From positions 1,800,384-1,864,383 of the forward strand of contig CBDFJJ010000013.1 in the NCBI GenBank assembly GCA_965248285.1: a stretch of DNA of 64,000 bases, in the 5' to 3' direction. Positions 1,965 through 63,366 of this stretch are shown here, in pieces. A model generated the notes under the pieces. That model was given only the letters and a program-made list of their open reading frames with translations. It searched no databases and had not been told where the DNA came from. Every line of letters begins with the position of its first letter. Positions within the stretch are counted from its first letter, which is position 1. The stretch is from Gemmatimonadales bacterium. Its GTDB lineage: Bacteria; Gemmatimonadota; Gemmatimonadetes; Gemmatimonadales; GWC2-71-9. The position numbers and the translations under genes are program-made.

Positions 1965-3362
1965 TCAATACGGGGAGTCGGGCAAGATGATCTTGGGTCC
2001 TTCGCCTCGCTCCATAGCGTCGAGGTGAAGGAAATATTTGCCGATTCCGGCGGCGCCCTGCATGTAACCCGTTTGCGCCACCAACAGTTCGGGCTGCACG
2101 CGGTGTTCCGACTGTACCCACTTGAGACCATCACCCGATTTCGTCGAGCGGTCGAGGAGATCGCTCGTCAGTCGGTCGGCGTACGCGCGGTACTCTGACC
2201 TCTTCGTAAGGCGTTCGATGGTGAGAAAATAGTCGCCAATACCGGCCGATCCCCCGCACTGGCTGACGTTTTCCCAGAACCCGGGTGTCCGGACCTCGGG
2301 CGTGCCGGTCCCCATGATACCCCGCGCACCCATGTGCACCCAACGCATCCACTCATCGTCGCCTGTTGCCACGGCAAGTTGGTGAAACAGCCTGTTGGTC
2401 CCCACGGGCCCGTGACACCACGCCAGATAATAAAGATCCTCCCCTAGCGGAGAGTTGTGGTAAATGAGATAGGTGTCGTCCTTCACCGTAGCGATCGATT
2501 TGAGGTACGCGGCACCGGCAAGAGCAGCGTCGAGAAACTCAGATTTTCGCGTGCGCGAGTACAACGCTGCCAAGAAATAGCAAATGCCGGCGGTGCCGTG
2601 CGAAAAGTTTGGCATCTCGCGTGCGTAGCCGGGATAGATGTCCCATTTGAGACCGGCGTCCGTGGGAATCGCTCGCTCGACCAGACGTTGTCCCGCCAGT
2701 TCCGCTAGCTCGACGGCTTCAGGATCACCCATCATCCGATCGGCATACAGGAGGCCAAGACCCGTTCCAGCCGTACCGCTTACGATATCATTGACTTCTC
2801 TGCTCGCTCCGTCACCGTTGCCGACCGGCCACGCCCTGCCCGCTCCGGCCGGTCGTGCGTTCCGCTTGAGGAGGGACAGGCACCGCACGGCGTGGCGACG
2901 GTATTGGTCGCGCCCCGAAGCCCTATACGTCTCCTCCATGACAAACGCCAAACCCGCCAGACCCGTGTACAAACCTGCCGAAGAGTCTCGCTCGCGACCG
3001 ACCTCGTCGGCGAGGTGATCCGCCCCGGCCATGGCATCGGTCAACACCGCGGTGTCGCCGGTGGTATGGAACAGTTCGAGTAGAAACGTCACCACTCCCG
3101 GACTATGGGTGTAAAGCGTATTGCCCAACGAGTTCGGGTCATTTGGATCCGCCGGCCACGTTACACCGTGATCGGTGGTGGCTCGCGAAAGCTCGATCCA
3201 CTTGGCGGCTTGCAAGGCGGCCTCGAGGTAGGGGCGTTCCGAACTCCGCCTGAGATCGCTAAGGCGCGGTAGGCGGAATGCGGGAAAACCAGCGACGGCC
3301 ATTGCTGCACCAACGCCACCCTTCACGAAATCACGTCGTGGTAGCGACGTTTCGTAGCACAT
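1965..3362 (-). CDS. LanC-like (lanthionine synthetase C-like fold) protein with a Tat-type signal
   Basis: LanC-type motifs FSHGTAGICYFL, WCHGPVGT and SQCGGSAGIGDYF. Start chosen at MCYETSLPRRDFVKGGVGAAMAVAG (an RR-x-F-V-K Tat motif). The longer track ORF to 3614 reads through the hairpin repeat. Confidence 0.65.
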   Translation of the reverse strand: MCYETSLPRRDFVKGGVGAAMAVAGFPAFRLPRLSDLRRSSERPYLEAALQAAKWIELSRATTDHGVTWPADPNDPNSLGNTLYTHSPGVVTFLLELFHTTGDTAVLTDAMAGADHLADEVGRERDSSAGLYTGLAGLAFVMEETYRASGRDQYRRHAVRCLSLLKRNARPAGAGRAWPVGNGDGASREVNDIVSGTAGTGLGLLYADRMMGDPEAVELAELAGQRLVERAIPTDAGLKWDIYPGYAREMPNFSHGTAGICYFLAALYSRTRKSEFLDAALAGAAYLKSIATVKDDTYLIYHNSPLGEDLYYLAWCHGPVGTNRLFHQLAVATGDDEWMRWVHMGARGIMGTGTPEVRTPGFWENVSQCGGSAGIGDYFLTIERLTKRSEYRAYADRLTSDLLDRSTKSGDGLKWVQSEHRVQPELLVAQTGYMQGAAGIGKYFLHLDAMERGEGPKIILPDSPY

Positions 3363-3489
3363 GTGTTGTCTCCATGAACGTGCCCCAATGTTTAGTAACT
3401 TTAGCCGCCGAGGGGTCAGGATGCCACAGCCTACGGGGCATTTCCGGGGAAGGCCGCGTGGCAGTACCGCCCGTAGCGCTGAATTGAAT

Positions 3490-3663
3490 AGCCACGGAAA
3501 GCACGGAAACCACGGACCCCCGCACCCCTCCCTGAATTTGGGTTCCCCTCCCCCCACCATGTGAAAAGCCAACACCGAGGATGAACAGCAGGAGGGTTGG
3601 GGGAGGGGAACCACAATCCGGGTGTGGGGCGGGGTTTCCGTGCTTTCCGTGCTTTCCGTGGCT
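3490..3663. repeat. Nested imperfect hairpin: tandem cacggaaag arms plus a C-run/G-run inner stem
   Basis: The left arm is agccacggaaagcacggaaaccacggacccccgcacccctccc...cccctcccccc. The right arm is ggggaggggaacc...ggggcggggtttccgtgctttccgtgctttccgtggct. The arms are reverse-complementary apart from a few mismatches. Confidence 0.8.
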
Positions 3664-3848
3664 CATCTGGGGTCGGGTGGGATGGTCTTCGTCGACCGAG
3701 ATGGATTGCGGGAGAACAGGAACTGTGGTTGTCCCTTCAATCACTTACCCCGAAATTCCCGGAAGACCATAAAAAAGCGGGGGCGTTGCCGCCCCCGCCG
3801 TGTGCTGTCCTGCCCAACGCCTCGTTGGTTTAGAGCGGCTCTCGACAG

Positions 3849-4502
3849 CTAGATGGCGAAGGCGAGTACGACGACACCGGTCACGCCCACCGTGACCCCG
3901 GCCGCCCGAATCGCCATGTTGCGCCACGGTAAGGATCGACCGTCGAGCCGCTTGACAACTGTAAACGCCCCCATCGCCACCGCATACTGGATCACGACTA
4001 GCCCCAGCAGATAGGCCCCGAGCGGCGCGGGCTCCGCTCCCACAACCGACTCGCCATAGGCGTACCCGTGAAAGGCTCCGGCGAGCGCGAATCCGACGCC
4101 GAGCAGCAACGGGCGGACCTTCTTGTCCGCGGCGAGGAACGCACCGGCGCCGACGACTGAAACGGCGACCGCGATCTCGCCGCCCGGAACGGTGACGCCC
4201 ATCAGGTGAATCACCAAGCCTACTAGGGACGCGACCAGAAAAACCAACGGAAAGATGCGCCCTTGTCCGAAAGCCGCCGCGATGATGCCGACCGCGAGGA
4301 TGAACGCGAGATGGTCGGGGCCGATGACTGGATGGGCAAGACCGGAGAGGAGTCCGGCGAAAAAGGTCCGAGGCACCTCACCACCGGTCATGTGATGTGC
4401 CATGGCTGCCTTGGGCAGACACAAGAGCACGAGCGTGAGCGTCGCGAGGACTTTGCGAACTCCAGCGGTTCGCCCCAACCATGTGTGATAGTGAGAACCC
4501 AT
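3849..4502 (-). CDS. hupE: HupE/UreJ-family Ni/Co transporter
   Basis: Signal peptide, then HHMTGG and GLAHPVIGPDHLAFILAVG motifs and multiple glycine-rich TM segments. It lies last in the nitrile hydratase gene string. Confidence 0.8.
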   Translation of the reverse strand: MGSHYHTWLGRTAGVRKVLATLTLVLLCLPKAAMAHHMTGGEVPRTFFAGLLSGLAHPVIGPDHLAFILAVGIIAAAFGQGRIFPLVFLVASLVGLVIHLMGVTVPGGEIAVAVSVVGAGAFLAADKKVRPLLLGVGFALAGAFHGYAYGESVVGAEPAPLGAYLLGLVVIQYAVAMGAFTVVKRLDGRSLPWRNMAIRAAGVTVGVTGVVVLAFAI

Positions 4503-14513: not shown

Positions 14514-14808
14514 CGTCCCTCCGGGGTCCGGTGTGGTCTAAGTGCAACTGGACTGATGAGTCTCCCCTACGCGTGCTGATAAGAGCGCTTGATAACGTCC
14601 GCACCGCTCGCAGCACATGTCGTCTAGGCGGTTCCACCGCCCATCATACAATATATCAAACGGCGCTCGCAAATCTCGGCGTGCGGCAATGGAGCCCGGG
14701 TCTCCGTGCCAATCGGCCGCCGCGTCGACCTACCTTCAGCGGCCCGGTCTGGGCTGGGGACGGTTGCGACGAAAGGGCGTCTCCCGCCCCCCGGCCTCCC
14801 GTCTCCCG

Positions 14809-16371
14809 TCACATGACCAGCCTCTCCGCCAACGCATACAGCAGATCGACGTAGGCTCGTTCAATATCTCCCAGCCCCGCAATCCCCGACCCCGGCCGCG
14901 GCTCCACCACCATGTACTCGTTCGGCGCGTGCGCGCCGGAGCCGTGACCAAGTCCCGAGAAAACGAGCGGAAGCCGCAACCGCTCGGTGAACTGATAGAA
15001 CGGCGCGCTTCCCGCCAACCGCGGAGAGACGGTGGGTGTCTTACCATATTTATTGAATACGCTGATGGCGGCTTGCACCACGGGGGCGTCGACCGCCGTC
15101 TGCGCGGCGGGGTAGCCGGAGAGCTTCCTTATCACGATGTCCTGAAAACCCCGCTCGTCGAGATGGCGGCGGATCTTGGCGAGGGCGGCGTCGGGGGTGA
15201 GGCCGTAGGGCAGTCGTGAATCCACCTTTGCCGTGGCCCGGTGGGGCAAGATGGTCTTTACCCCTTCCTCTGTATAGCCACTCCAGATGCCGTCGATGTT
15301 GAGCGTGGGGTGATAAAGATACCGCAGGATGGCGTCGCGTCCGGTGATGCCGTCGATCCAGCGCTCGACCCTCAGCAGGCGCTGCCTCCCTTCGTCGTTC
15401 CAGCCGGTGACCAGGCCGTTGATGAGGCGTTGTTCCTCGATGGTCGGCGGCCGTACGTCGTCGTAGTATCCGTCGATGGTGATGGTGTTGCCATCGGTCG
15501 AGGTAAGCGTTGCCAGCGCCTGCACCAGCCGCCACGCCGGCGCGTCGACGATGGCTTTGTACGAGCCGTGTATCTCCGCTTGGGTCGGGCCGCCCCACGC
15601 ACCGCCGGTCGACTCCATCTCGGTGTACAGGATGCCCTTCACACCGAGGCTCATGCTCACGTCACCACTTGGCGATTGCGCATTGAACGGGAACATCACG
15701 CCGTCGGCCGTCCGCAGGCGATCCACGAACCGATCCACCAACTCGTGATAATGCGGCGATCCCAACTCCTCTTCGCCTTCGGCGAGCACCATGAGGTTGA
15801 CCGGCAACGTACCGTTCACGGCGATGATCGATTCGATGGCGTTGAGAAAGGCGCGCTCGGGCCCTTTTTGATTCGTCGCTCCCCGCGCCATCAACACCCT
15901 GCCGAGTTCGTGGTCGATCACTCGCGCCTCGAACGGTGGGGATTCCCAGTCCTCGGGATTCACGGGCTGCACGTCGTACATGAGGTAGACCATCAACGTG
16001 CGTTCGGCGCCGGCGTCGTAGTATCCCCACACACCGGGATGCCCCGATGTCGGCACCAACTGAGTCTCGCTGAACCCCAACGCCTCGAGGTCACTGCGTA
16101 GTAGTTCGGCCATCTCGGTAATCCCGATGTTCTGCGCGCTCACCGAAGGCTGCCGCAACCACCGCTGCAGGTTCGCGAGGTGCACGTCGGCATGATCGGC
16201 GATGTGGCGGTAGATGGCGTCGTGGTCCCCGGCGTAAGCCCGGATCGTGGACGCGTCGAATTGCTCGTCGGTGGTGAAACGGAAAGATTTTTGGGCGGAG
16301 ATCGCGGAGGGAGATGCTGCTAACCCCGCGGCTAGCGTCAATGCCATAGTGATGCCCGTAGTGTTTGTCAT
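14809..16371 (-). CDS. M20-family metallopeptidase (dipeptidase-like), secreted
   Basis: YDVQPVNPEDWESPPF, ARGATNQKGP and LAEGEEELGSP blocks. Start taken at MTNTTGITMALTLAAGLAASPSAISA (signal peptide). Confidence 0.8.
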   Translation of the reverse strand: MTNTTGITMALTLAAGLAASPSAISAQKSFRFTTDEQFDASTIRAYAGDHDAIYRHIADHADVHLANLQRWLRQPSVSAQNIGITEMAELLRSDLEALGFSETQLVPTSGHPGVWGYYDAGAERTLMVYLMYDVQPVNPEDWESPPFEARVIDHELGRVLMARGATNQKGPERAFLNAIESIIAVNGTLPVNLMVLAEGEEELGSPHYHELVDRFVDRLRTADGVMFPFNAQSPSGDVSMSLGVKGILYTEMESTGGAWGGPTQAEIHGSYKAIVDAPAWRLVQALATLTSTDGNTITIDGYYDDVRPPTIEEQRLINGLVTGWNDEGRQRLLRVERWIDGITGRDAILRYLYHPTLNIDGIWSGYTEEGVKTILPHRATAKVDSRLPYGLTPDAALAKIRRHLDERGFQDIVIRKLSGYPAAQTAVDAPVVQAAISVFNKYGKTPTVSPRLAGSAPFYQFTERLRLPLVFSGLGHGSGAHAPNEYMVVEPRPGSGIAGLGDIERAYVDLLYALAERLVM

Positions 16372-16507
16372 GGGGCTGCCTTCATGGATGGTGGTTGGGG
16401 TTGAAGGTAATCGCGGATTATGGGACGTACTAGGACGAACCAAGACGGTCGAAGACGGTCTGGAACGGGGGACACGGGGCACACGTTGACCAGAGATTGA
16501 TATGATA

Positions 16508-26695: not shown

Positions 26696-26731
26696 GAATA
26701 TTGAATATTCGGTATTGGATATTGGATATTC
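26696..26731. repeat. AT-rich heptamer hairpin (gaatatt/ggatatt), left copy
   Basis: gaatattgaatattcggtattggatattggatattc. Its reverse complement matches 28926-28961 at 33 of 36 positions. Confidence 0.8.
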
Positions 26732-26732
26732 T

Positions 26733-28820
26733 TCAGTTCCCTCCCTGCGTCGTCGTGGTCACCGCGCGCCCGTCGTCGTGGGTACCCCAGCGCTCGAACC
26801 ATTTCCGCAAAAACATCTGCGTGCGAAGGAAATTGGAGGGCTTGCGAGACGTGCCGTGCCACTCCCCTTCGAAACGGATCATGGCCGTCGGTTTGTTTTG
26901 CGCCTTGAGCGCCTGGTAGAACTGCTCGGTCTGCGAGATCGGCGTGCGCAAATCGAGTACGCCGGTCATCAACATCGTGGGCGTTGTGACGTTACCGACA
27001 TACATGAGGGACGAACGGCGGAGGTGTTCGCTGGGATCCTCCCACGGAAACTTTTCGAAGTCTGCATACCAGCGCAGGTAGTTGCCGTCCACCTGCCCGG
27101 GGAAACTCAACCAGTTAGTGACCGGACAATTCGCCGATGCTGCGCGGAACCGATCCGTGTGGCCGACCACCCACGATGTGAGCACGCCCCCACCGGAGCA
27201 GCCGTACACGAACATGTTGTCGTCATCCACATACCCGCGGGAGACGACCTGGTCCACGCCGGCCATCAAGTCGTGGAAGTCGTCGCCGGGGTAGTTGTAC
27301 TGGATGGCGTTGCCGAACTCGCTCCCGTAGCCAGAGCTGCCGCGCGGATTGGTATAGAGCACCACGTAGCCGTGTGCCGCGTGGTCCTGCCAACCGAAGT
27401 TGAACCCGCCGTGGTACATCCCGTGGGGTCCGCCGTGAATGACGAGCATGAGCGGATATTTCCGCGACGGATCGAAGTCAGGCGGCTTGATAATCCATCC
27501 GTGGATGTCCAGTCCGTCGAACGATTCGTACCAGAGCTCTTCGACGTCCCCCAACGTCTTCCCGGCGAGGATGTCGGCGTTGACGCGCGTGAGGCGCGTG
27601 AGCCGGTCGGGGCGGTCGAGCGCGAACGCGACCACGTCTCCCGGCTCGTGCGCGTCCTGCTGCATGCCGACTGCGACACCTCCGCTCACGTCATTGATCG
27701 CGAGTAGTTGCTTGCCGCTCGTGACTTGTCTGGTCTCGCCGGACAGCGTGGCGTGGAACACGTTCTCGTATCCGTCAGCCCGGATGTTGAAGTAGACACC
27801 ACGGCTGTCGGGGCTCCAGAAGACCGCGCCGGGAGTCCGGTCCATCTGCGCCGTCAGTGCACGCGGATTCGATCCGTCCGCGTCCATGACGTATAGTGTG
27901 GATTCGATGTAATCCATGCCGGTTGTGTCGTAGCCGATGTAGGCGATGTAGCGCCCGTTCGGCGACGGGACAGGCCGACGATCGGGGCCGCGGCGTGTGG
28001 TGATCTGCTCGACGGCGCGCGTCGAGAGATCGACCCGGTAAATCTCGGATTCCTGCCAGTGATAGCCGGCGTCCTCTCTCCTCAAGCCACTGAACAGCAC
28101 GCTCCCTCCATCGCGGTCCCAGGCCGGGGCCCCGTGGTCGAAATCCCCGCTAGTGAGCTGGCGGGGCGTGCCGCCGTCCGCAACTATCACGAAGATGTGT
28201 TGGAAACCTTCGTCGAGATACCCGACCCGGTCCTGCCGGTAGACGAGGCTCTCGACGATGTTTGGGCTCTTGGTCCAAGTTGCACCCTCCGGCCGTGGGA
28301 GATCGATACGCCAGTGGCGGGACGACGGGTTTTCGGCCGGTACCCGCATGGTGAACGCGAGCTGCGAGCCGTCGGGTGACCACGCTAGGTTGGAGGGTGT
28401 TTGCTGGAGGCGCGTCACCGGCGATGCGGCTCCTTCGTCGTCCATCCAACGCACGAAGATCTGGGCGGGGCCGTTCTCGACGGGAGCGAGAAACGCTATG
28501 CGCGATCCGTCTGGAGACCAGCGGGGCGACGAGCCGTCGATCAGGTGGCGGTTTTTGGAGCCATCAACACCAACCATCCAGATGGCGGATTCCCACGCGT
28601 CGTTCATCTTGTCGATCCAACCTCGCGTGTACACCACACGCGCGCCGTCCGGAGAGACGCGGGGGTCGCTCACCCGCTCCCAGTCGAGCCAGTGCTCTAC
28701 CGAGAGGTGGGCTTGTGGATCGGGGGATTGGGCGTGGACGGGGCGGGGGCGCACGCTGGCAACGGTCTGAAGCGCGGCCATGACAACGTAGATCACGAGG
28801 ACGAGGGGCCGATAACGCAT
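26733..28820 (-). CDS. S9-family serine peptidase (prolyl oligopeptidase / acylaminoacyl-peptidase type), secreted
   Basis: N-terminal propeller with SPDG repeats. Catalytic elbow GCSGGG with downstream D and H regions. Start taken at MRYRPLVLVIYVVMAAL. Confidence 0.85.
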   Translation of the reverse strand: MRYRPLVLVIYVVMAALQTVASVRPRPVHAQSPDPQAHLSVEHWLDWERVSDPRVSPDGARVVYTRGWIDKMNDAWESAIWMVGVDGSKNRHLIDGSSPRWSPDGSRIAFLAPVENGPAQIFVRWMDDEGAASPVTRLQQTPSNLAWSPDGSQLAFTMRVPAENPSSRHWRIDLPRPEGATWTKSPNIVESLVYRQDRVGYLDEGFQHIFVIVADGGTPRQLTSGDFDHGAPAWDRDGGSVLFSGLRREDAGYHWQESEIYRVDLSTRAVEQITTRRGPDRRPVPSPNGRYIAYIGYDTTGMDYIESTLYVMDADGSNPRALTAQMDRTPGAVFWSPDSRGVYFNIRADGYENVFHATLSGETRQVTSGKQLLAINDVSGGVAVGMQQDAHEPGDVVAFALDRPDRLTRLTRVNADILAGKTLGDVEELWYESFDGLDIHGWIIKPPDFDPSRKYPLMLVIHGGPHGMYHGGFNFGWQDHAAHGYVVLYTNPRGSSGYGSEFGNAIQYNYPGDDFHDLMAGVDQVVSRGYVDDDNMFVYGCSGGGVLTSWVVGHTDRFRAASANCPVTNWLSFPGQVDGNYLRWYADFEKFPWEDPSEHLRRSSLMYVGNVTTPTMLMTGVLDLRTPISQTEQFYQALKAQNKPTAMIRFEGEWHGTSRKPSNFLRTQMFLRKWFERWGTHDDGRAVTTTTQGGN

Positions 28821-28925
28821 GAGTGCCTCCGGTTGGTCGTCATTTGCTGGTTGGCGTAGATGATAATGATAGACCGCGGGGTCGGACGACTGCAAATCGG
28901 CGTGAGAAGGGAGAAGGCCCTAGAC

Positions 28926-28961
28926 GAATATCCAATATCCAATATTGAATATTGAATATTC
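28926..28961. repeat. AT-rich heptamer hairpin, right (inverted) copy
   Basis: gaatatccaatatccaatattgaatattgaatattc. Confidence 0.8.
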
Positions 28962-29036
28962 AAGATTGGAGGGCCCTCTTGACGCCCTAAGTCGGTGGTG
29001 AATCTTCACGGAGTGGGCCACCAAACGGGGCGGCCT

Positions 29037-29227: not shown

Positions 29228-30019
29228 ATGAAAATCTCTTATCTCATCCCGGGGCCGATGGGACGCGGCAGCGAAGGCATGGCCGAGCTGGCACGACGCC
29301 GCGACTTTCTCGAACGACATGCGGCGCCGGGGACCGAAGTCAGCGTATACGACGTCTCCGAGGGCCCGGCCTCCATCGAGAGCATGACCGAGGAATATCT
29401 CTCAATCCCCGCTGCGCTGCGGCGGGCGGTGGAGTTGGAAGAAGAAGGATGGGACGCCGTGATCCTCGGCTGTTATGGCGACCCGGGGCTCGATGCGTTC
29501 CGCGAGTTGATCGCCATTCCCATTGTAGGTCCGTGCGAAAACACTGCGCTAGTGGCGGCGTCGTTGGGACATAGGTTCTCAATCATCACCGTTACCGAAA
29601 GCATCGTGGCGCCGATCGAAAAGCTCGTGCGAAGCGCCGGAGTAAGCGAGAAGCTGGCGAGCGTACGCGCCATAGACATTCCGGTGATGGATCTGCACGG
29701 GGACCGTGCGCGTGCCATCGAGGCCACCGTTCGTGAAGGTAGGCTCGCTATTTCAGAAAATCGGGCCGATACGCTCATCGTCGGCTGTATGACGATGGGC
29801 TTTATGGGGATCGCTGAGGCCGCGTCGGCGGAACTCGGCGTGCCCGTCGTGAATCCGGTCACAATGGCTCTCAAATACGCGGAGGCCTTGACCGGCGCGG
29901 GGCTCACCCACTCGCGGCGTGCCTACCACCTGCCGCCGAAGTTGGCGTCAGGCGAGGTTGCTTCTGCACGAGATCTTTTGCGGGCCGAGGTGTGGATCGA
30001 AGTGAGAGGTGAGAGGTGA
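29228..30019 (+). CDS. Asp/Glu/hydantoin racemase-family protein
   Basis: ILGCYGDPGL and LIVGCMTMG, the two catalytic-Cys blocks of hydantoin/Asp-Glu racemases. Start taken at MKISYLIPGP. Confidence 0.8.
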   Translation: MKISYLIPGPMGRGSEGMAELARRRDFLERHAAPGTEVSVYDVSEGPASIESMTEEYLSIPAALRRAVELEEEGWDAVILGCYGDPGLDAFRELIAIPIVGPCENTALVAASLGHRFSIITVTESIVAPIEKLVRSAGVSEKLASVRAIDIPVMDLHGDRARAIEATVREGRLAISENRADTLIVGCMTMGFMGIAEAASAELGVPVVNPVTMALKYAEALTGAGLTHSRRAYHLPPKLASGEVASARDLLRAEVWIEVRGER

Positions 30020-30102
30020 GAGGTGAGACGTGAGACGGCCCCACCCCACCCCATAAGGGTGGAGAGGGGTGGCCCTCTCACGTCTCACCTCTCACCTCTC
30101 AC
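30002..30102. repeat. Nested hairpin: gtgagag/gtgagac heptamer arms plus a ccccacccc/ggggtgg core
   Basis: gtgagaggtgagaggtgagaggtgagacgtgagacggccccaccccaccccataagggtggagaggggtggccctctcacgtctcacctctcacctctcac. Confidence 0.85.
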
Positions 30103-30154: not shown

Positions 30155-33100
30155 ATGCCCAGTCGAGCTAAAGTCTTTGTCGTCTGCCTCGGAGTCGCCG
30201 CGATCGGCTCCGCCGCCACGGGCGATCTTTTGCAAGCCCAGGCCGGACAAGCGGCCTGGGACGTCACGAAGCCCCGGGGCGAGACGGTGGAGATTGATTT
30301 TACCACCCAGGAAGGCACATGGATGTCGGTGGATATCTCGCCCGACGGCCGCTGGATTGTCTTCGATCTCCTGGCACACATCTATCGCGTTCCCGCCGAA
30401 GGGGGCGAGGCCGAAGTACTGACACAGAACAGTGGCGTCGCTATCAACGTGCACCCGCGGTACTCGCCGGACGGCCAACACATCGCATTCGTCTCGGATC
30501 GGGGCGGTCAGAACAACCTGTGGGTGATGGAGGCCGACGGCTCCAACCCCAGGGCGGTGTTCGAGGACCCGGACGTGCGCATCTTCGAGCCGACGTGGAC
30601 CCCCGATGGCCAGTATATCCTCGCTCGTCGCCGTGCCTTCACTGGACAGCGCGAGACTGGGATCTGGATGTACCACAGGGACGGCGGCGAGGGAGTGCAA
30701 CTAATAGGCCCGGATGTGGCTGGCGCCTCCTGGCCCTCCGCATCCGCCGATGGGAGGTATGTGTACTTCCACATGAGTACACCGGGCCAGGAAGTCTACC
30801 ATATCGCCCGTAACCCGCTCCAAGGAGCGTACAACATTCGGCGCATGGAGCTCGCATCGGGAAAGATCACGGCCGTGACCAGCGGAGAGCCCTCTCGCCA
30901 GTATCGGCTGTCCAGTGGCGGCGCCTACGGCGGAGAGGTTTCGCCGGACGGCCGCTGGCTCGCGTTTGGCCGACGCATCCCCGATGGCACGATCACGTAC
31001 AAGGGACACGAATTTGGCCCGCGTACGGCACTGTGGCTTCGTGATCTGGAGACCGGGGCCGAGCGCGTCGTCATGGATCCTATTGAGATGGACATGACCG
31101 AGGGCGGGAAAAACCTCCGCGTGCTGCCGGGCTACAATTGGGCACCCGACGGACGGTCTCTCGTCTTGTCCCAGGGTGGCAGGCTGCGGCGCGTGGATGT
31201 TGCGAGCGGGCGCGTAACTAGAATCCCATTCACTGCCCGCGTGCACAGGGTCATTTCCGAGCAGGCATATGCTCCCTTCCGAATCTCCGATGAACCGTTC
31301 GAGGTGAAGTTCACTCGTTGGCAGACCGCCGCTTCCGACGGACGCAGCTTGGCGTTCCAGGCAGTGGGAAAGATCTGGATCATGAACCTGCCGGACGGCA
31401 AACCCCGGCGCCTCACGAACGACTCCTTCGAACCCTTCGAGTATGCGCCGGCCTGGTCACCGGATGGCCAGTGGCTCGCCTTCACCAGCGTGGATGAGAT
31501 CGGCGGCGGTCACCTTTGGAAAGTCCCAGCCACAGGTGGCACACCGGAGCAATTGACGAGCGAGTACGGCGAGTACATGCACACCATCTGGAGTCCCGAC
31601 GGCCGCGAGATCATGGTGGTCAAGGGAGCGGGAGCCACGGCCCGCACCCGGACGATGGCCCACAACCCCTGGTATGACATCGTGGTGTTTCCTGCGGCGG
31701 GTGGGCCAGGCGACGTCGTCACGAGAGTGTCCGTCCCCACGCTCCCTACCCGCACGCAGTTCGTTCGCCCGTCTTACGGCCCGGACGGCAGGATCTTTTA
31801 CCCGCAGCTGGGTGAGGCCCGGGGCGATTCCACCACATTGATCTCGGTGCGACGGGACGGGAGCGACCTCCGAGAACACCTCGTCTTTCTCCATGCCGAC
31901 GAGGTGGTTCCCTCTCCCGACGGGAAGTGGGTCGCCTTCAACGAGGGAGACAACGTCTACCTGGCGCCGCTCCCGCTGTGGGGAACAGGAGCCGAAGCGG
32001 TTTACGTGAACAGGAAGCAGGGGAAGGTCCCGGTCAAGCAGCTCTCCCGGGAAGGAGGAATCTTCCCGGGTTGGCGGGACTCGAATACGGCGGAGTTCGG
32101 GAGCGGGGCCCGGTATTTCGCGCATGACGTCGAGAGCGGGAAAACGGATACGGTTCATATCGACCTGCGGTTGCCGCGGGACCTGGCCCAGGGGACCATC
32201 GCCCTGACCGGCGCCCGCATCCTTACTATGGAGCACCGCGAGGTACTGGAGAGCGGGTCGATTGTCGCCCGGAACGGCCGCATCACCTGTGTGGGGAATT
32301 GTGATACGTCGGGTGCCGATCGGGTGGTGGAGCTAAGGGGCAAGACCATCACCCCCGGCTTCATCGATATGCACAACCATCACTATCGGGAATATCGGGG
32401 CATCATTCCCCAGAAGGCATTCGAAGCGTCGGTACCGTTGGCGTTCGGCGTGACCACCAGTATGGACAACTCGATGTGGTCGCAGGACGTGTTCCCCGGA
32501 GCCGAGTTGATCGAAGCGGGGATGCTGATCGGGCCCCGGACGTTCAGCACGGGTGATCCCCTATACGGCGGAGACGCTCCCCGCCAGAACGACCTCACCA
32601 GCTACCAGGTCGCCGAAGAGAATGTGAACCGCCTGGCTTCTTGGGGTGCGGTGTCCATTAAGCAGTACTTGCAGCGGCGCCGGGATCAGCGCCAATGGGT
32701 CGCCGAGGCGTCTCGCAAGCGTGGACTCATGGTAACCGCGCAGGGAAACGATCTGGCCTTCAACCTCAGCATGATCATGGACGGGCAGACGGGGTGGGAG
32801 CACGAGATGCACTACCTGCCGATCTACAGCGATGTGGCGAAGTTCTTCGGAAAGGCGAAGGCGGTGTACGGCCAGACCTTCGTGACCGGACCGGGGCCGT
32901 GGAATGATGAGTACTGGTTTCAGGAAAGTGATGTGTGGAAGAACGAGAAGCTGCGGCGTTGGTTCCCGTGGCAACAGCTCGTGCCCCACACGCGTCGGCG
33001 CATGCTCAGACCAAAGACCGATTATAGCTTCGCCGTCGCCGCCCAAGGGCTTGCCGACATCATCGCGGAAGGCGGGCACGGATCGATCGGCGGCCACGGG

Positions 33101-57283: not shown

Positions 57284-58596
57284 CAGGTTGCGGAAAAAGT
57301 CGGGTAATGGACGATAGCATCGCGAGCCGGAAGTTCTTATCGTAGAGGGACCTCGATGGGAGTGCCACGATGCGCGGGAACAAGACGAATCAGTCGGCGC
57401 TGTTCAGCTATATCAGTGCGGAGGATCGGGTGCCCTCCGACCATCCGTTGCGCGCCCTGCGGGCGCTGGTGGACCCGGTGTTAGCCCGGCTCTCGCCGCA
57501 GTTGGACCGGCTGTACGCGCGGCGGGGCCGGCCGTCGATTCCCCCGGAACATTTGTTACGCGCGTTATTGCTGCAGGTGGTGTATACGATCCGGAGCGAG
57601 CGGCAGCTGATGGAGCAGCTCGATTACAACATCCTGTACCGATGGTTTGTGGGGTTGAATCTGGACGACGCGGTGTGGGTGCCGACGGTCTTTACGAAGA
57701 ATCGGACGCGGCTGGTCGAGGGGGGCATCGCGGATGCGTTTCTGGCCGAAGTGTTACAGGAGGCGGAGCGGCGGGCGTTGTTGTCGAATGAGCATTTCAC
57801 CGTCGACGGGACCTTGCTGGACGCGTGGGCGAGTCAGAAGAGTTTTCAGCCGAAGGCCGGCACCCGCCCGCCAACGGACGATGATCCGGGGAATCCGAGC
57901 GTGACGTTTCGCCAGGAGAAACGGACGAATGCGACGCATGCGTCGCGGACGGACCCGGAGGCGCGGTTGACGCGGAAGAGTGGGGGGCAAGGCGCGCAAT
58001 TGGCGTACTTGGCGAGTGTGTTGATGGATAATCGGCACGGGCTCGTGGTGGCGACCGACGTGACGCAGCCCGGCTACGAGGCGGAGTGTGCGAGTGCGCT
58101 GGCGATGGTGGGGAGCTTACCGCCGACGGCCCGGCGACGGACGTTGGGGGCGGACAAGGGTTATGATCGGTGCGGGTTTGTCGACACGCTGCGGGCGTTG
58201 GGCTGGACGCCCCACGTCACGCCGAACGTGCACCGCACGCGGTTGCGGAGCGCGGTGGATGGCCGGACGACGCGCCATCCCAGCTATGCGATCAGTCAAC
58301 GGCAGCGCAAAAAAGTGGAAGAGATCTACGGGTGGGGCAAGACGATTGGGTTGTTACGCAAACTCCGACATCGCGGGACCCCGCGGGTCGGGTGGGTGTT
58401 TACGTTCACGGCCGCGGTCTACAATCTGATGCGGATACGCACCCTGACCCTGGCCGGAGGCAGCCCCTGATGGGGCAGTGTGGGCCGCATTCGTCACGCC
58501 GACCGCACCGCGGGGGCGGTAATAGGGGACCGCACGCTGGTACACCGTCGTGTTACCCGGACAAACGCGGCTCACCATGAATTTTTCCGCAACCTG
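57284..58596 (+). mobile_element. IS5-family (IS1182-like transposase) insertion sequence
   Basis: Perfect 15-bp IRs (caggttgcggaaaaa / tttttccgcaacctg), each abutted by CTAG (57280-57283 and 58597-58600). The left CTAG contains the lipoprotein stop codon. Confidence 0.85.
57370..58470 (+). CDS. IS5/IS1182-family DDE transposase
   Basis: N-terminal SALFSYISAEDRVPSDHPLR...RGRPSIPPEHLLRALLLQVVY..SERQLMEQLDYNILYRWFVGL is the typical family block. Confidence 0.9.
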   Translation: MRGNKTNQSALFSYISAEDRVPSDHPLRALRALVDPVLARLSPQLDRLYARRGRPSIPPEHLLRALLLQVVYTIRSERQLMEQLDYNILYRWFVGLNLDDAVWVPTVFTKNRTRLVEGGIADAFLAEVLQEAERRALLSNEHFTVDGTLLDAWASQKSFQPKAGTRPPTDDDPGNPSVTFRQEKRTNATHASRTDPEARLTRKSGGQGAQLAYLASVLMDNRHGLVVATDVTQPGYEAECASALAMVGSLPPTARRRTLGADKGYDRCGFVDTLRALGWTPHVTPNVHRTRLRSAVDGRTTRHPSYAISQRQRKKVEEIYGWGKTIGLLRKLRHRGTPRVGWVFTFTAAVYNLMRIRTLTLAGGSP

Positions 58597-59575: not shown

Positions 59576-59732
59576 GGCGACGGACGGTAAGACGGTACGA
59601 CGGTAAGCGTGAGACGTGAGACGTGAGACGTGAGAGGACCCCTCCCCAACCCCTGAGGGGTGGCTGGGCGGGGCCGTCTTACGTCTTACGTCTCACGTCT
59701 CACGCAGTACCGCCACTACCGCCTTACCGCCC
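59576..59732. repeat. Nested hairpin: gacggta and gtgagac heptamer arms plus a cccctcccc/ggggtgg core
   Basis: ...gacggtaagacggtacgacggtaagcgtgagacgtgagacgtgagacgtgagaggacccctccccaacccctgaggggtggctgggcggggccgtcttacgtcttacgtctcacgtctcacgcagtaccgccactaccgccttaccgcc. Confidence 0.85.
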
Positions 59733-59738
59733 TACGAG

Positions 59739-59812
59739 TGCGCCCAGGAGGACTCGAACCCCCAACCTCTTGGTCCGTAGCCAAACGCTCTATCCAATTG
59801 AGCTATGGGCGC
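59739..59812 (-). tRNA. tRNA-Arg (anticodon ACG)
   Basis: GCGCCCA/TGGGCGC acceptor, anticodon loop CTACGGA. Confidence 0.9.
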
Positions 59813-59889
<77 letters not shown>

Positions 59890-59991
59890 GAACTTTCGCC
59901 ACCCTGAATCACCTAGGGTGGGCGAACAAATGTATCCACCGCCCATTCTGGATGGTAGTTCCCCCCCGGCCTCGGACCGCGGGCGGTGGAT

Positions 59992-60133
59992 TTCAGATTG
60001 CAGATTGCAGACTGCAAATTTCAGATTGGCGGAGGCCTCTGACTGCCCCCGCGCCCCCGTGCCCCCGTGCCCCCGTGCCCCCGTGCCCCCGTGCCCCCGT
60101 GCCCCCGTCCCCCCGTGCCCCTGTGCCCCTGTC
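59992..60133. repeat. Two adjacent short tandem arrays: about 5 x heptamer (tgcagat) and about 9 x nonamer (cccccgtgc)
   Basis: ttcagattgcagattgcagactgcaaatttcagattgg, then cccccgcgcccccgtgcccccgtgcccccgtgcccccgtgcccccgtgcccccgtccccccgtgcccctgtgcccctgtcc. Confidence 0.85.
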
Positions 60134-60179
60134 CATCTCTGCCCCTCGCTGCCCCCAGCTGAATCCCGCATTCCTATTA

Positions 60180-61634: not shown

Positions 61635-62578
61635 CCGCGCACCCAGCCTCGGTCGCCTGCGGCTTGTCGGACCAGGCGTGCGAGACCGGACATCGTGTGT
61701 GTGTCGTCACTGAGCATGGAGATGCGTTGGAGTGCGAATCCCATGCTCGCCGCGGCTTGGGCGAGTTCGACATCGATGTCGTAGAGAATCTCTACGTGCT
61801 CACTCGTGAAGCCCACCGGGACGATCAACGCACCCGGCACGTCTTCCTCGTGGAGTCGGGTGATGACGTCTCCGGCGTCCGGGCCCAGCCACGGGTCAGG
61901 CGTCATCGGGGCCGATTGATACGCGAACTCGTGCGTGTTGCCGATACCCTCGGCTGTGAGCAGGCGAACGACCCCTTCCATGGTGGCACGCAGCTCGTCG
62001 GGGTAGGGATCGTTCCACTCGAGAATCCGCTCGGGCAAGCTGTGCGCAGTGAAAACGATCTGCACGCGGTCGCGGATATCTACGGCGAATTTGTCCAAAC
62101 CGTCCGCGACGCGGGTGGCGAGCGTGTCCAACAACTCGGGCAGCACGTGCCAGCGCTCGATGGGCGCCACTTCCACCGGCGAATCGGCTTCGGCCACTTT
62201 CTCGAAGTATGCGCCGATGCTCATGCGCGAGTAGTGCGGTGCCATCACGAGGCCGACGGCCTTGGAGATCCCAGCCTCGTGCATTTCGGAAAGCGCGGTC
62301 TCGATGCGCGGCGTCCAATGCCGCATGCCCACGACGCAGCGGTACGGCGGACTGCCGTTTGAGGCGTTGAGCGACTGTTCGAGTTGTTCGGCCTGGGCGA
62401 CGGTGCGCTCGCGGATCGGCGAACGCCCACCGATGATCCGATACCGCTCCGTCATCTCGTCGATCATCTCCGGACGCATCGGTCGCCCACCGCGCACGTC
62501 GAGCAGGTAGGGCTCGACGTCGTCCAGGGAGTCGGGGCCGCCGTAGGCCATGACGAGGACGCCGATGGGCTTGGTCAT
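61631..62578 (-). CDS. hemH: Ferrochelatase
   Basis: GVLVMAYGGPDSLDDVEPYL, HYSRMS and FTAHSLP...GFTSEHVE motifs. Confidence 0.9.
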   Translation of the reverse strand: MTKPIGVLVMAYGGPDSLDDVEPYLLDVRGGRPMRPEMIDEMTERYRIIGGRSPIRERTVAQAEQLEQSLNASNGSPPYRCVVGMRHWTPRIETALSEMHEAGISKAVGLVMAPHYSRMSIGAYFEKVAEADSPVEVAPIERWHVLPELLDTLATRVADGLDKFAVDIRDRVQIVFTAHSLPERILEWNDPYPDELRATMEGVVRLLTAEGIGNTHEFAYQSAPMTPDPWLGPDAGDVITRLHEEDVPGALIVPVGFTSEHVEILYDIDVELAQAAASMGFALQRISMLSDDTHTMSGLARLVRQAAGDRGWVRG

Positions 62579-62585
62579 CAGTGTT

Positions 62586-62804
62586 GACGGAAAGACGGAA
62601 GGACGGAAAGACGGAAAGGACGGAATGTCATTTTTTTCTCGGCCTGGAACCGCATTACGGAGGCGAATAATACCCCGATCAACCGGCTAGCCTAAGAGGG
62701 GGTCTTTTTGGCGGAGCCGATAGGCAAAAAAAAGCCGTCCGGCCACCCGACCGTCCGGCCCGTCGATCTTTCCGTCCTTCCGTCCTTCCGTCTTTCCGTC
62801 CGTC
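62586..62804. repeat. Inverted blocks of the octamer gacggaaa/ggacggaa flanking a ~140-nt spacer
   Basis: The left block (62586-62627) is gacggaaagacggaaggacggaaagacggaaaggacggaatg. The right block (62767-62804) is tctttccgtccttccgtccttccgtctttccgtccgtc. Confidence 0.8.
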
Positions 62805-62887
62805 TGTGGACAACCGTATGTTGTTTATCCCCAAGGAGTTAGGCCAAGAAAACGGCGCCGCAACCAAAGCAGTCACGGCGCCAGGAG

Positions 62888-62961
62888 TAGCGGGGGCGGG
62901 ATTTGAACCCGCGACCTCCGGGTTATGAGCCCGGCGAGCTACCAGACTGCTCCACCCCGCG
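62888..62961 (-). tRNA. Initiator tRNA-fMet (anticodon CAT)
   Basis: CGCGGGGTGGAGCAG..., a 1:72 mismatch, three G:C pairs closing the anticodon stem (CCGGG-CTCATAA-CCCGG). Closely parallels the E. coli tRNA-fMet layout. Confidence 0.9.
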
Positions 62962-62970
62962 ACGTTGTTG

Positions 62971-63287
62971 GTCGGAAGGACGGAAAGACGGAAAGACGGA
63001 AAGTTGGTCCCTCTCGCACGACCGACATCCAAGATTCTGGATCAATTTTATGGGCATTGCATCGTTTGGCAAAGCCCGGATCTGGGCGGAAAACTTAAGG
63101 CGGCCTTAAGCCGCCCGTTTCTCAACCAATGCGTACCGTCCTACCGTCCTTCCGTCCTTCCGTCCTTCCGTCTTTCCGCCTTCCGTCCTTCCGTCCTTCC
63201 GTCCTTCCGTCCTTCCGTCCTTCCGTCTTTCCGTCCTTCCGTCCTTCCGTCCTTCCGTCCTTCCGTCCGTCTGTCCTTCGTCCGCCC
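62971..63287. repeat. Octamer array pair: 4 x ggacggaa (62971-63003) and about 19 x ccgtcctt (63136-63287) in inverted orientation
   Basis: A long run ccgtccttccgtccttccgtcc... with occasional variants (ccgtctttc, ccgccttc). It explains the PSFRPSVL-type track ORFs. Confidence 0.85.
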
Positions 63288-63292
63288 TTCGA

Positions 63293-63366
63293 GAGCGGGA
63301 AACGGGACTCGAACCCGCGACCCCAACCTTGGCAAGGTTGTGCTCTACCAACTGAGCTATTCCCGC
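63293..63366 (-). tRNA. tRNA-Gly (anticodon GCC)
   Basis: GCGGGAA/TTCCCGC acceptor, anticodon loop TTGCCAA. Confidence 0.9.

Follow-up and report, generated by a model that had tools for sequence, protein, structure and literature searches.

The window analysed here comprises 64,000 nucleotides of a Gemmatimonadales bacterium (contig CBDFJJ010000013.1, positions 1,800,384 to 1,864,383), and all statements on this genome refer to that 64-kb window. Near its start, two minus-strand genes, hupE (3849-4502) and a gene for a LanC-like protein (1965-3362), are separated by a spacer of 486 bp (3363-3848), which holds at 3490-3663 the element studied here, E1, lying 128 nt before the LanC-like gene (ATG at 3362) on the minus strand. 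An ordinary intrinsic terminator with a 10-bp GC stem and TTTTTTAT is found after hupE on the same strand (3776-3799) and precedes E1 by about 110 nt in the direction of transcription. By its sequence and predicted fold, E1 is a very stable hairpin whose arms are built of short tandem repeats. It represents a family of intergenic foldback simple-sequence repeats found across Gemmatimonadota, whose members carry a locus-specific short GC-rich hairpin between two inverted arrays of a tandem 7-9-nt word.

The left outer arm of E1 (3490-3516) contains three tandem 9-mers of the CACGGAAAG type, purine-rich on the plus strand, with the units AGCCACGGA, AAGCACGGA and AACCACGGA in this order. The right outer arm (3630-3663) is (TTTCCGTGC)x3, pyrimidine-rich on the plus strand and followed by GGCT. 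The repeat finder TRF reported a period of 9 on both sides, with 2.8 and 2.9 copies. Between the outer arms lie a C-rich left inner stem (3517-3558, CCCCCGCACCCCTCCC...TTCCCCTCCCCCC), recognised in the sequence, the inverted-repeat search and the fold and including the C-run CCCCTCCCCCC at 3547-3557, and a G-rich right inner stem (3595-3629, GGGTTGGGGGAGGGGAACC...GGGTGTGGGG) with the G-run GGGGGAGGGG at 3600-3609; five G-runs of at least three bases occur in the right half (3597-3634). The loop of about 36 nt (3559-3594) forms a small internal hairpin in the predicted fold. As detected by the inverted-repeat search, the two complete arms (3490-3558 and 3595-3663) measure 69 nt each, are 80% complementary and are separated by 36 nt. 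The predicted folding energy was -125.2 kcal/mol, compared with -74.7 +/- 4.4 for shuffled sequences (z = -11.4). The nested hairpin with tandem-word arms and a C-run/G-run inner stem, proposed in an initial annotation made from the letters alone, was thus borne out by sequence, TRF and fold, with a loop of about 36 nt.

Two further elements of the same architecture, which the initial annotation had also pointed out, were recovered at 30002-30102 (E2) and from 59576 onward, to 59735 (E3). The left arm of E2 (30002-30037) is (GTGAGAG)x3 (GTGAGAC)x2, the core hairpin (30038-30073) is GGCCCCACCCCACCCCA-TAAGGG-TGGAGAGGGGTGGCC, and the right arm (30074-30102), (CTCTCAC/GTCTCAC)x4, ends 52 nt before an ATG at 30155. 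The stop codon TGA (30017-30019) of an Asp/Glu-racemase-family gene falls within a GTGAGAG unit of the left arm, and the encoded protein ends in ...RAEVWIEVRGER, an 8-residue tail (29996-30019) that has no counterpart in most orthologues. Since the last six codons and the stop of this gene consist of GTGAGAG units, the array has overwritten the 3' end of the gene. In E3, the outer left arm (59576-59607, (GACGGTAA)x3) begins 13 nt from the MscS start codon (ATG 59562, minus strand), the inner unit (59608-59704) consists of (CGTGAGA)x4, a C-run/G-run core and (CGTCTYA)x4, and the outer right arm (59705-59735), of the TACCGCC type, ends 3 nt from the 3' end of tRNA-Arg (59738-59812, minus strand). 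E3 is therefore nested, with an E2-like unit inside a GACGGTAA foldback. At loci 29.6 kb apart, the E2 unit and the inner unit of E3 share 80% identity across arms and core, although their cores are of low complexity and this identity may overstate homology. C-run/G-run cores were found in the window in E1, E2 and E3 only. An IS5-family transposase gene (57370-58470) lies about 1.1 kb from E3 and has no tandem-word arms around it.

All three elements fold as near-perfect hairpins of -84 to -125 kcal/mol with z about -11. The values were -83.9 kcal/mol (z = -10.9) for E2 and -121.0 kcal/mol (z = -11.6) for E3, with its outer GACGGTAA and inner GTGAGAC arms, and none of 200 dinucleotide shuffles of each of the three loci folded as well, so the predicted stability exceeded that of the shuffled controls throughout. 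A relationship between the arm words had also been suggested; it holds for CACGGAAA, GACGGAAA and GACGGTAA, which differ by 1-2 bases, but GTGAGAC is a separate word. When the E1 spacer and the cores of E1-E3 served as BLAST queries against the window and every locus fetched for comparison, no further copies came up. No Rfam family matched the window elements, either at the gathering threshold or in a search relaxed to E <= 1; only tRNAs passed the threshold, and the sub-threshold matches, to microRNA precursors at about half the threshold, are as with any long hairpin.

The tandem words themselves are widely shared. Proteins encoded beside the window elements indicate an origin in Gemmatimonadota. 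A scan with the pattern GACGGWARGACGGWARGACGG, covering one genome per GTDB species and with taxonomy taken from record titles, placed 91 of the 118 matches listed for the tandem GACGG[A/T]AR word in metagenome-assembled genomes of Gemmatimonadota, from at least 39 assemblies. In these loci, which had been chosen by search word, a script identified about 37 inverted pairs in Gemmatimonadota with the layout 5'-(purine-rich word)n, a core of 12-170 nt, (pyrimidine-rich complement)n-3'. GACGG[A/T]AR is the dominant word family, and CACGGAAAG and GTGAGAS are also used in the window genome. A metagenome scan with (GTGAGAS)x3 added at least 33 inverted pairs, about 28 after merging overlaps, in contigs mostly of 60-70% GC, with words that include GTAGTCG, GTCGGTC, AACAGCT and GGGAGAC. 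The same inverted-array layout was present in L234, a metagenome contig with the cyanobacterial HIP1 motif. The intergenic family suspected by the initial annotation is hence real, but it is not specific to one genome, since at least 39 Gemmatimonadota genomes share word and architecture. Rfam searches on six related loci returned nothing except RNase P, and literature searches for the words and for Gemmatimonadota repeats found no paper on either. Five viral contigs matched the pattern, and one of them, L125 (IMGVR_UViG_3300037493_003693), carries an inverted pair of the GACGG word at 819-959. Many metagenome-assembled contigs (L019, L023, L064, L070, L072, L075 and L247) start or end inside arrays; the arrays break short-read metagenome assemblies of Gemmatimonadota.

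Placement of the arrays was examined relative to genes called with a crude caller of our own, for which start codons are approximate. Intergenic positions were found for 219 of 294 arrays, although 87% of the sequence is coding and 13% non-coding, and the distance of the arms to the adjoining stop or start codon ranges from -11 to +20 nt. Among the 31 elements with both neighbours called, 10 occupy convergent spacers (baseline 13%, p = 0.005), where they are flush with both stop codons, 20 occupy co-directional spacers and a single one lies in a divergent spacer (baseline 12%, p = 0.09).

The arms also follow a strict orientation rule. Of 37 Gemmatimonadota pairs, 36 begin with the purine-rich arm (p = 5.5e-10), as do 25 of 27 metagenome pairs (p = 5.6e-6). 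Unpaired arrays, read on the coding strand of the neighbouring gene, are purine-rich on the stop side (50:4) and pyrimidine-rich on the start side (30:3). In geometric terms, an array read 5' to 3' from the gene into the spacer is purine-rich at either gene end. Avoidance of Rho as the sole cause of this polarity was rejected, because all 10 convergent cases are also purine-first. In a simple scan, terminators with a hairpin and a T-run were rare in the soil Gemmatimonadales loci L003-L120 (12 of 281 non-divergent spacers), so that the foldback hairpins are often the sole structure after a stop codon; the window genome does have clear terminators of this type.

Two more inverted pairs, absent from the initial annotation, were detected in the window at 62586-62625/62767-62801 (E4) and 62970-63003/63132-63283 (E5), and their cores are no simple hairpins. 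The left arm of E4 (62586-62625), (GACGGAAR)x5, lies 7 nt from the ferrochelatase (hemH) ATG (62578, minus strand) and gives a pyrimidine-rich 5' untranslated region (UTR) on the mRNA strand. Its core (62626-62766) contains a -10 box (TATTAT, then TCGCC) that relatives conserve upstream of hemH, and its right arm (62767-62801), (TTCCGTCY)x4, lies about 50 nt after the tRNA-Met terminator (62853-62883, minus strand). E5 occupies the gap between tRNA-Gly and tRNA-Met. Its left arm (62970-63003, (GGAAAGAC)x4) is in the 5' leader of tRNA-Met (62887-62961, minus strand) and is missing from the relative L254; its core (63004-63131) holds a canonical terminator (63098-63116) and a sigma-70-like promoter, TTGCCA-16-TAAAAT (63045-63072); and its right arm (63132-63283), about 19 units of CCGTCCTT, starts 10 nt after tRNA-Gly (63293-63366, minus strand). 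Ordinary hairpin and T-run terminators are consequently found beside or inside three of the window elements, namely E1, E4 and E5. All five window pairs, E1 to E5, are located between co-directional genes.

Two observations concern the surroundings of E4 and E5. Directly before the ferrochelatase start codon (62578) there is a pyrimidine-rich tandem array and no Shine-Dalgarno-like sequence (62578-62625; compare L246 323-372 and L247 110-157). The gene for tRNA-Met (62887-62961, minus strand) is flanked by complementary arrays within 62767-63003, pyrimidine-rich in the 5' leader and purine-rich after the terminator, which could pair in the manner of an rRNA processing stem if read-through occurs.

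Other arrays of the window are unpaired or widely spaced. Between the stop of the protoporphyrinogen oxidase gene (60180) and tRNA-Val, at 59989-60161, two unrelated arrays, (GATTGCA)x5.7 (59989-60028) and (TGCCCCCG)x11 (60044-60161), stand side by side without being inverted, and both follow the orientation rule. An array of (CGTCTCC)x4.6 (14778-14810) is flush with the stop of a minus-strand gene (14809-16482) and is purine-rich on the coding strand of that gene. In this 62% GC genome there are also AT-rich heptamer arrays, (GAATATT/GGATATT)n, at 26697-26733 and 28925-28968. They flank a whole 2.2-kb gene, one being flush with the stop of an S9 peptidase gene (26733-28822, minus strand) and the inverted copy lying about 105 nt upstream of its start. 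In total, 18 tandem arrays of period 6-11 were found in the window, compared with 0-2 in ten dinucleotide shuffles. Unit periods, from TRF and our own scan, are 7, 8 and 9, with 2.8-19 copies head to tail, and all 13 informative arrays conform to the orientation rule. A single genome thus uses many unrelated words (GTGAGAC, CACGGAAAG, TGCCCCCG, GATTGCA, CGTCTCC), and the arrays take up roughly one spacer in six or seven in the window.

Comparison with related loci indicated rapid turnover. In L001 and L253, whose LanC-like proteins are 90-95% identical, only about 30 nt separate hupE and the LanC-like gene, as opposed to 486 in the window, which makes the terminator, E1 and their flanks all lineage-specific. 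Orthologous spacers in different species were found by BLAST among the fetched loci. In L079 a 137-bp element fills the space between two convergent stop codons, and the orthologous spacer of L095 measures 18 bp. Same-word arrays occur at the same place in L078/L093, L005/L032 and L015/L059/L117, with unrelated cores and different copy numbers. The tRNA-Gly/tRNA-Met/hemH locus contains no arrays in L248 and L249 (71% identity). In L254, which belongs to the same 90% cluster as the window genome, about 5 purine units follow tRNA-Gly, against about 19 in the window, there is no partner array before tRNA-Met, and the hemH 5' UTR has a degenerate pyrimidine array with no partner upstream of the promoter. 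In L247 (85%) the hemH pyrimidine array is present and the contig begins inside the purine array; among the relatives compared, the E4 purine arm was present in the window and L247 only. L246 (93%) has another pyrimidine word, (CTGCCCGN)x5, against the hemH ATG. Arms are thus gained and lost singly and on a short timescale, while the word family survives across the phylum. No target-site duplications were seen at filled versus empty sites (L079/L095; window E1 versus L001/L253), a weak test given that the flanks have diverged, and no transposase was found between arms 0.3-3.5 kb apart, which enclose ordinary genes only. An autonomous element was rejected for this reason.

A palindrome of 85-135 nt, TGTCATCCCGAGCGGAGCGAGGGATC...GATCCCTCGCTCCGCTCGGGATGACA (TGTCATCCCGAGC...), is present in 14 copies in fetched loci of the soil lineage (L008, L039, L050, L060, L069, L071, L077, L078, L095, L110, L112, L114 and L221), has no Rfam match, and in 9 of the 14 copies lies exactly between inverted arrays of differing words. 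In locus L069 (5878-6112, 6155-6527), a foldback element whose core is TGTCATCCCGAGC lies 43 nt upstream of the gene for RNase P RNA; in cyanobacteria, the corresponding gene is known to contain STRR (short tandemly repeated repetitive) heptamers. Whole word-blocks are mirrored on both sides of the core in E3, L034, L026, L110 and L168.

Among known systems, the closest match is provided by the arrays of Xanthomonas (GGGAATC) and Nostoc/Anabaena (GGGGAYT) described by Rehm et al. 2015 (PLoS One, PMC4692102). The Xanthomonas word occupies about 186 sites per genome, 89-93% of them intergenic and close to the ends of open reading frames (ORFs), and 70-75 convergently oriented pairs (G-rich first) in each genome are able to form stem-loops (PMC4692102). 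Its arrays are under-represented between divergent genes, two species carry them between the same gene pairs with length and sequence varying extensively, and most of the Xanthomonas and Nostoc arrays are transcribed, with no function found (PMC4692102). Every defining property of those arrays is matched here: head-to-tail units of the 7-nt class, typically in 3-20 copies, a lineage-specific short tandem word, a non-coding bias, closeness to ORF ends, an orientation rule, and a position that is kept while length and sequence vary. The Gemmatimonadota elements therefore belong to that kind, and the element kind is not new, having already been described as inverted tandem 7-mer arrays (PMC4692102). 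They differ in phylum, in a dominant unit of 8 nt (7-9) instead of 7, in words that lack G-tracts and are not of the G-quadruplex (G4) type, in the use of several words per genome, and in arms that can nest word-blocks around a palindromic core. The STRR heptamers of heterocystous cyanobacteria are likewise lineage-specific tandem 7-mers of spacers with the same orientation rule, but in Anabaena few arrays are paired, and words and phylum differ.

Other comparisons were less close. REP/BIME elements of enterobacteria and pseudomonads stabilise upstream mRNA and attenuate transcription; like the present elements, they are abundant intergenic hairpin-forming repeats, mostly found after gene 3' ends and between convergent genes. 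REPs, however, are single imperfect palindromes of 20-40 nt with a conserved sequence and an associated RAYT transposase, whereas the Gemmatimonadota arms are variable-number tandem words with cores that are not conserved between loci and no REP-like consensus, in agreement with the initial annotation. Its exclusion of CRISPR stands as well, since the units are 7-9 nt long and abutting, without spacers and with two arrays inverted, in contrast to 25-40-nt repeats with unique spacers. Bidirectional intrinsic terminators resemble the elements in having a GC-rich hairpin between convergent genes with an A-rich 5' and U-rich 3' flank on both strands, but the elements lack a continuous U-tract, have stems of 30-70 bp instead of 5-15 bp, and coexist in the window with ordinary terminators. 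The terminator scan of the window returned 3776-3799, 62853-62883 and 63098-63116, and no tandem-word arm forms a hairpin with a U-tract; E1 is no canonical terminator, in agreement with the initial annotation. The foldback (FB) transposons of Drosophila have long inverted arms of short tandem repeats, unequal arm lengths and variable cores. FB elements and MITEs (miniature transposable elements with inverted repeats) share with the present family tandem-repeat inverted arms, arm lengths that differ between copies and within a copy, and a variable core; FB elements, in turn, are eukaryotic, kilobase-sized and flanked by target-site duplications, while here no duplication, transposase or sharp termini were found.

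The explanation that we prefer, with moderate confidence and at roughly an even chance of being right as a whole, is that the elements are slippage-driven intergenic foldback repeats and, wherever the two arms end up in one transcript, form a leaky barrier at transcript ends. Arrays would expand and contract by replication slippage at spacer edges until they reach coding sequence. The inverted partner array would be gained or lost separately, through inverted copying or through a palindromic unit landing in the centre of another, and selection would afterwards filter array orientation. The arms of E2 and E3 must share one transcript, and those of E1 probably do, so the RNA would close into a hairpin of 30-70 bp right behind the upstream gene or tRNA. 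Intrinsic termination requires a hairpin plus a weak hybrid, and an r(pyrimidine):d(purine) hybrid is weaker than its r(purine):d(pyrimidine) counterpart. Given that the arm transcribed second is always pyrimidine-rich, RNA polymerase would stand on a weak rPy:dPu hybrid as the strong hairpin zips up behind it, a combination that would favour pausing or termination in either direction. The hairpin would leave an exonuclease-protected 3' end, and RNase III could plausibly cut the long duplex. We infer that termination, processing and stabilisation would each be modulatory, with the elements dispensable and not essential. The barrier part of this reading fits the convergent-gene enrichment and the polarity.

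Several points weigh against this explanation. E1 comes downstream of an ordinary terminator (3776-3799), and E4 and E5 have a promoter between their arms, in addition to ordinary terminators, and probably never fold as one RNA. Because unpaired arrays share the orientation rule, the hairpin alone cannot explain that rule, and a barrier leaves both it and the bracketing of promoters by E4 and E5 unexplained. Variant units do not follow a mirrored order in the two arms (mean z 0.14, p = 0.15 versus permuted unit order), which gives no hint of selection for exact pairing or of its fine-scale copying from arm to arm. Folding is no better for the transcribed strand than for its complement (12 versus 8 cases, with a mean difference of -1.1 kcal/mol), and thus no RNA-specific compensation is visible. 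Slippage alone does not account for one word being kept across the phylum. Start codons from the crude caller are uncertain, and the loci were selected by search word.

A rival reading is a dedicated bidirectional terminator or insulator, selected to stop transcription from both sides in genomes without T-run terminators. Each unit of the 3' arm would provide a further chance of termination, with a closed hairpin followed by UUUCC or UUCC. Position and polarity, as read from the DNA, are compatible with such a function, which was among the candidates of the initial annotation. The convergent enrichment with arms flush with both stop codons, the single element among 31 between divergent genes, the presence on either strand of an A-rich 5' arm and a 3' arm with U (35:1), as in bidirectional terminators, the scarcity of canonical terminators in soil Gemmatimonadales loci and the positions conserved across species all speak for it. 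We nevertheless consider it unlikely, because elements are gained and lost among relatives with flanking proteins at least 90% identical, E1, E4 and E5 lie beside or around ordinary terminators, and in many co-directional cases the next start codon follows the element by 2-14 nt, so that read-through is needed. The sharing of the orientation rule by single arrays, the absence of strand-specific G-U compensation and the non-significant depletion in divergent spacers (p = 0.09) argue in the same direction. A non-autonomous, MITE-like mobile foldback comparable to the Drosophila elements, with the tandem words as binding sites of a transposase or recombinase and palindromic units inserting into hairpin centres to give the nested look, appears quite unlikely. 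The initial annotation had listed a MITE-like relic among its candidates, and the presence/absence differences and the two similar copies (E2/E3, 80%) agree with it, but no target-site duplication or transposase was found. Such mobility would explain how an inner unit 80% identical to E2 came to lie 29.6 kb away inside a GACGGTAA foldback (low-complexity cores may inflate this identity), how the soil palindrome TGTCATCCCGAGC... reached 14 copies, with 9 placed exactly between inverted arrays whose words differ, and why filled and empty sites both exist. A fixed polarity is expected from terminal inverted repeats, and the word is conserved across the phylum. Duplications were not seen at the L079/L095 or E1 junctions, however, widely spaced arms enclose ordinary genes and no transposase, the same core carries arms of different words, arm lengths can be very unequal (4 versus 19 units), and partner arms appear singly.

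The arrays may instead be sites recognised by a conserved DNA- or RNA-binding protein of Gemmatimonadota, such as a polar roadblock or a boundary-marking nucleoid protein, in which case the hairpin potential would be incidental and result from sites that point outward from the genes on both sides. This would suit the preservation of GACGG[A/T]AR in at least 39 species while all else changes, an orientation rule that unpaired arrays obey relative to the neighbouring gene rather than a partner arm, and the bracketing of promoters by E4 and E5. The many unrelated words in one genome, the variable unit length (7 to 9 nt), the same architecture with other words in other lineages, including cyanobacteria, and the lack of an identified candidate protein make it very unlikely. 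More broadly, the outward orientation of paired and unpaired arrays at stops and starts in three phyla, together with the phylum-wide 8-nt word, could reflect an unrecognised sequence-directed marking of gene boundaries, either by a polar protein barrier to RNA polymerase (a bacterial insulator) or by transposase-free, self-extending palindromic DNA spread by hairpin-templated copying; we regard this as a speculative and distinctly unlikely idea. If it were true, the arrays would be an active component of genome organisation and not slippage debris. Finally, a G-quadruplex or i-motif switch arising from the inner-stem G-runs and C-runs has hardly any chance of being the explanation. The initial annotation had suggested that the G-runs could form G-quadruplexes; the right half of E1 has five such runs (3597-3634), and related Xanthomonas and Nostoc heptamers form G4 in vitro (PMC4692102). 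C-run/G-run cores are nonetheless limited to E1-E3 in the window, the family-wide words GGACGGAA and GACGGTAA have GG runs only, and a complementary C-run lies in cis to each G-rich half, so that the hairpin of -84 to -125 kcal/mol should win.

For annotation, the arrays are of practical consequence, since they overwrite gene ends, as in the racemase tail, abut start codons in 5' UTRs and will mislead ORF callers. Knowledge of tandem 7-mer arrays goes back to 1990 for cyanobacteria and to 2015 for Xanthomonas. The Gemmatimonadota add a third, deep-branching phylum with the same layout and orientation rule and entirely different words, which argues for a common cause, mechanistic or selective, and they offer many natural variants with which that cause could be tested. 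If it is true that the arrays terminate or insulate transcription, they would be a main terminator type in a phylum scarce in hairpin and T-run terminators.

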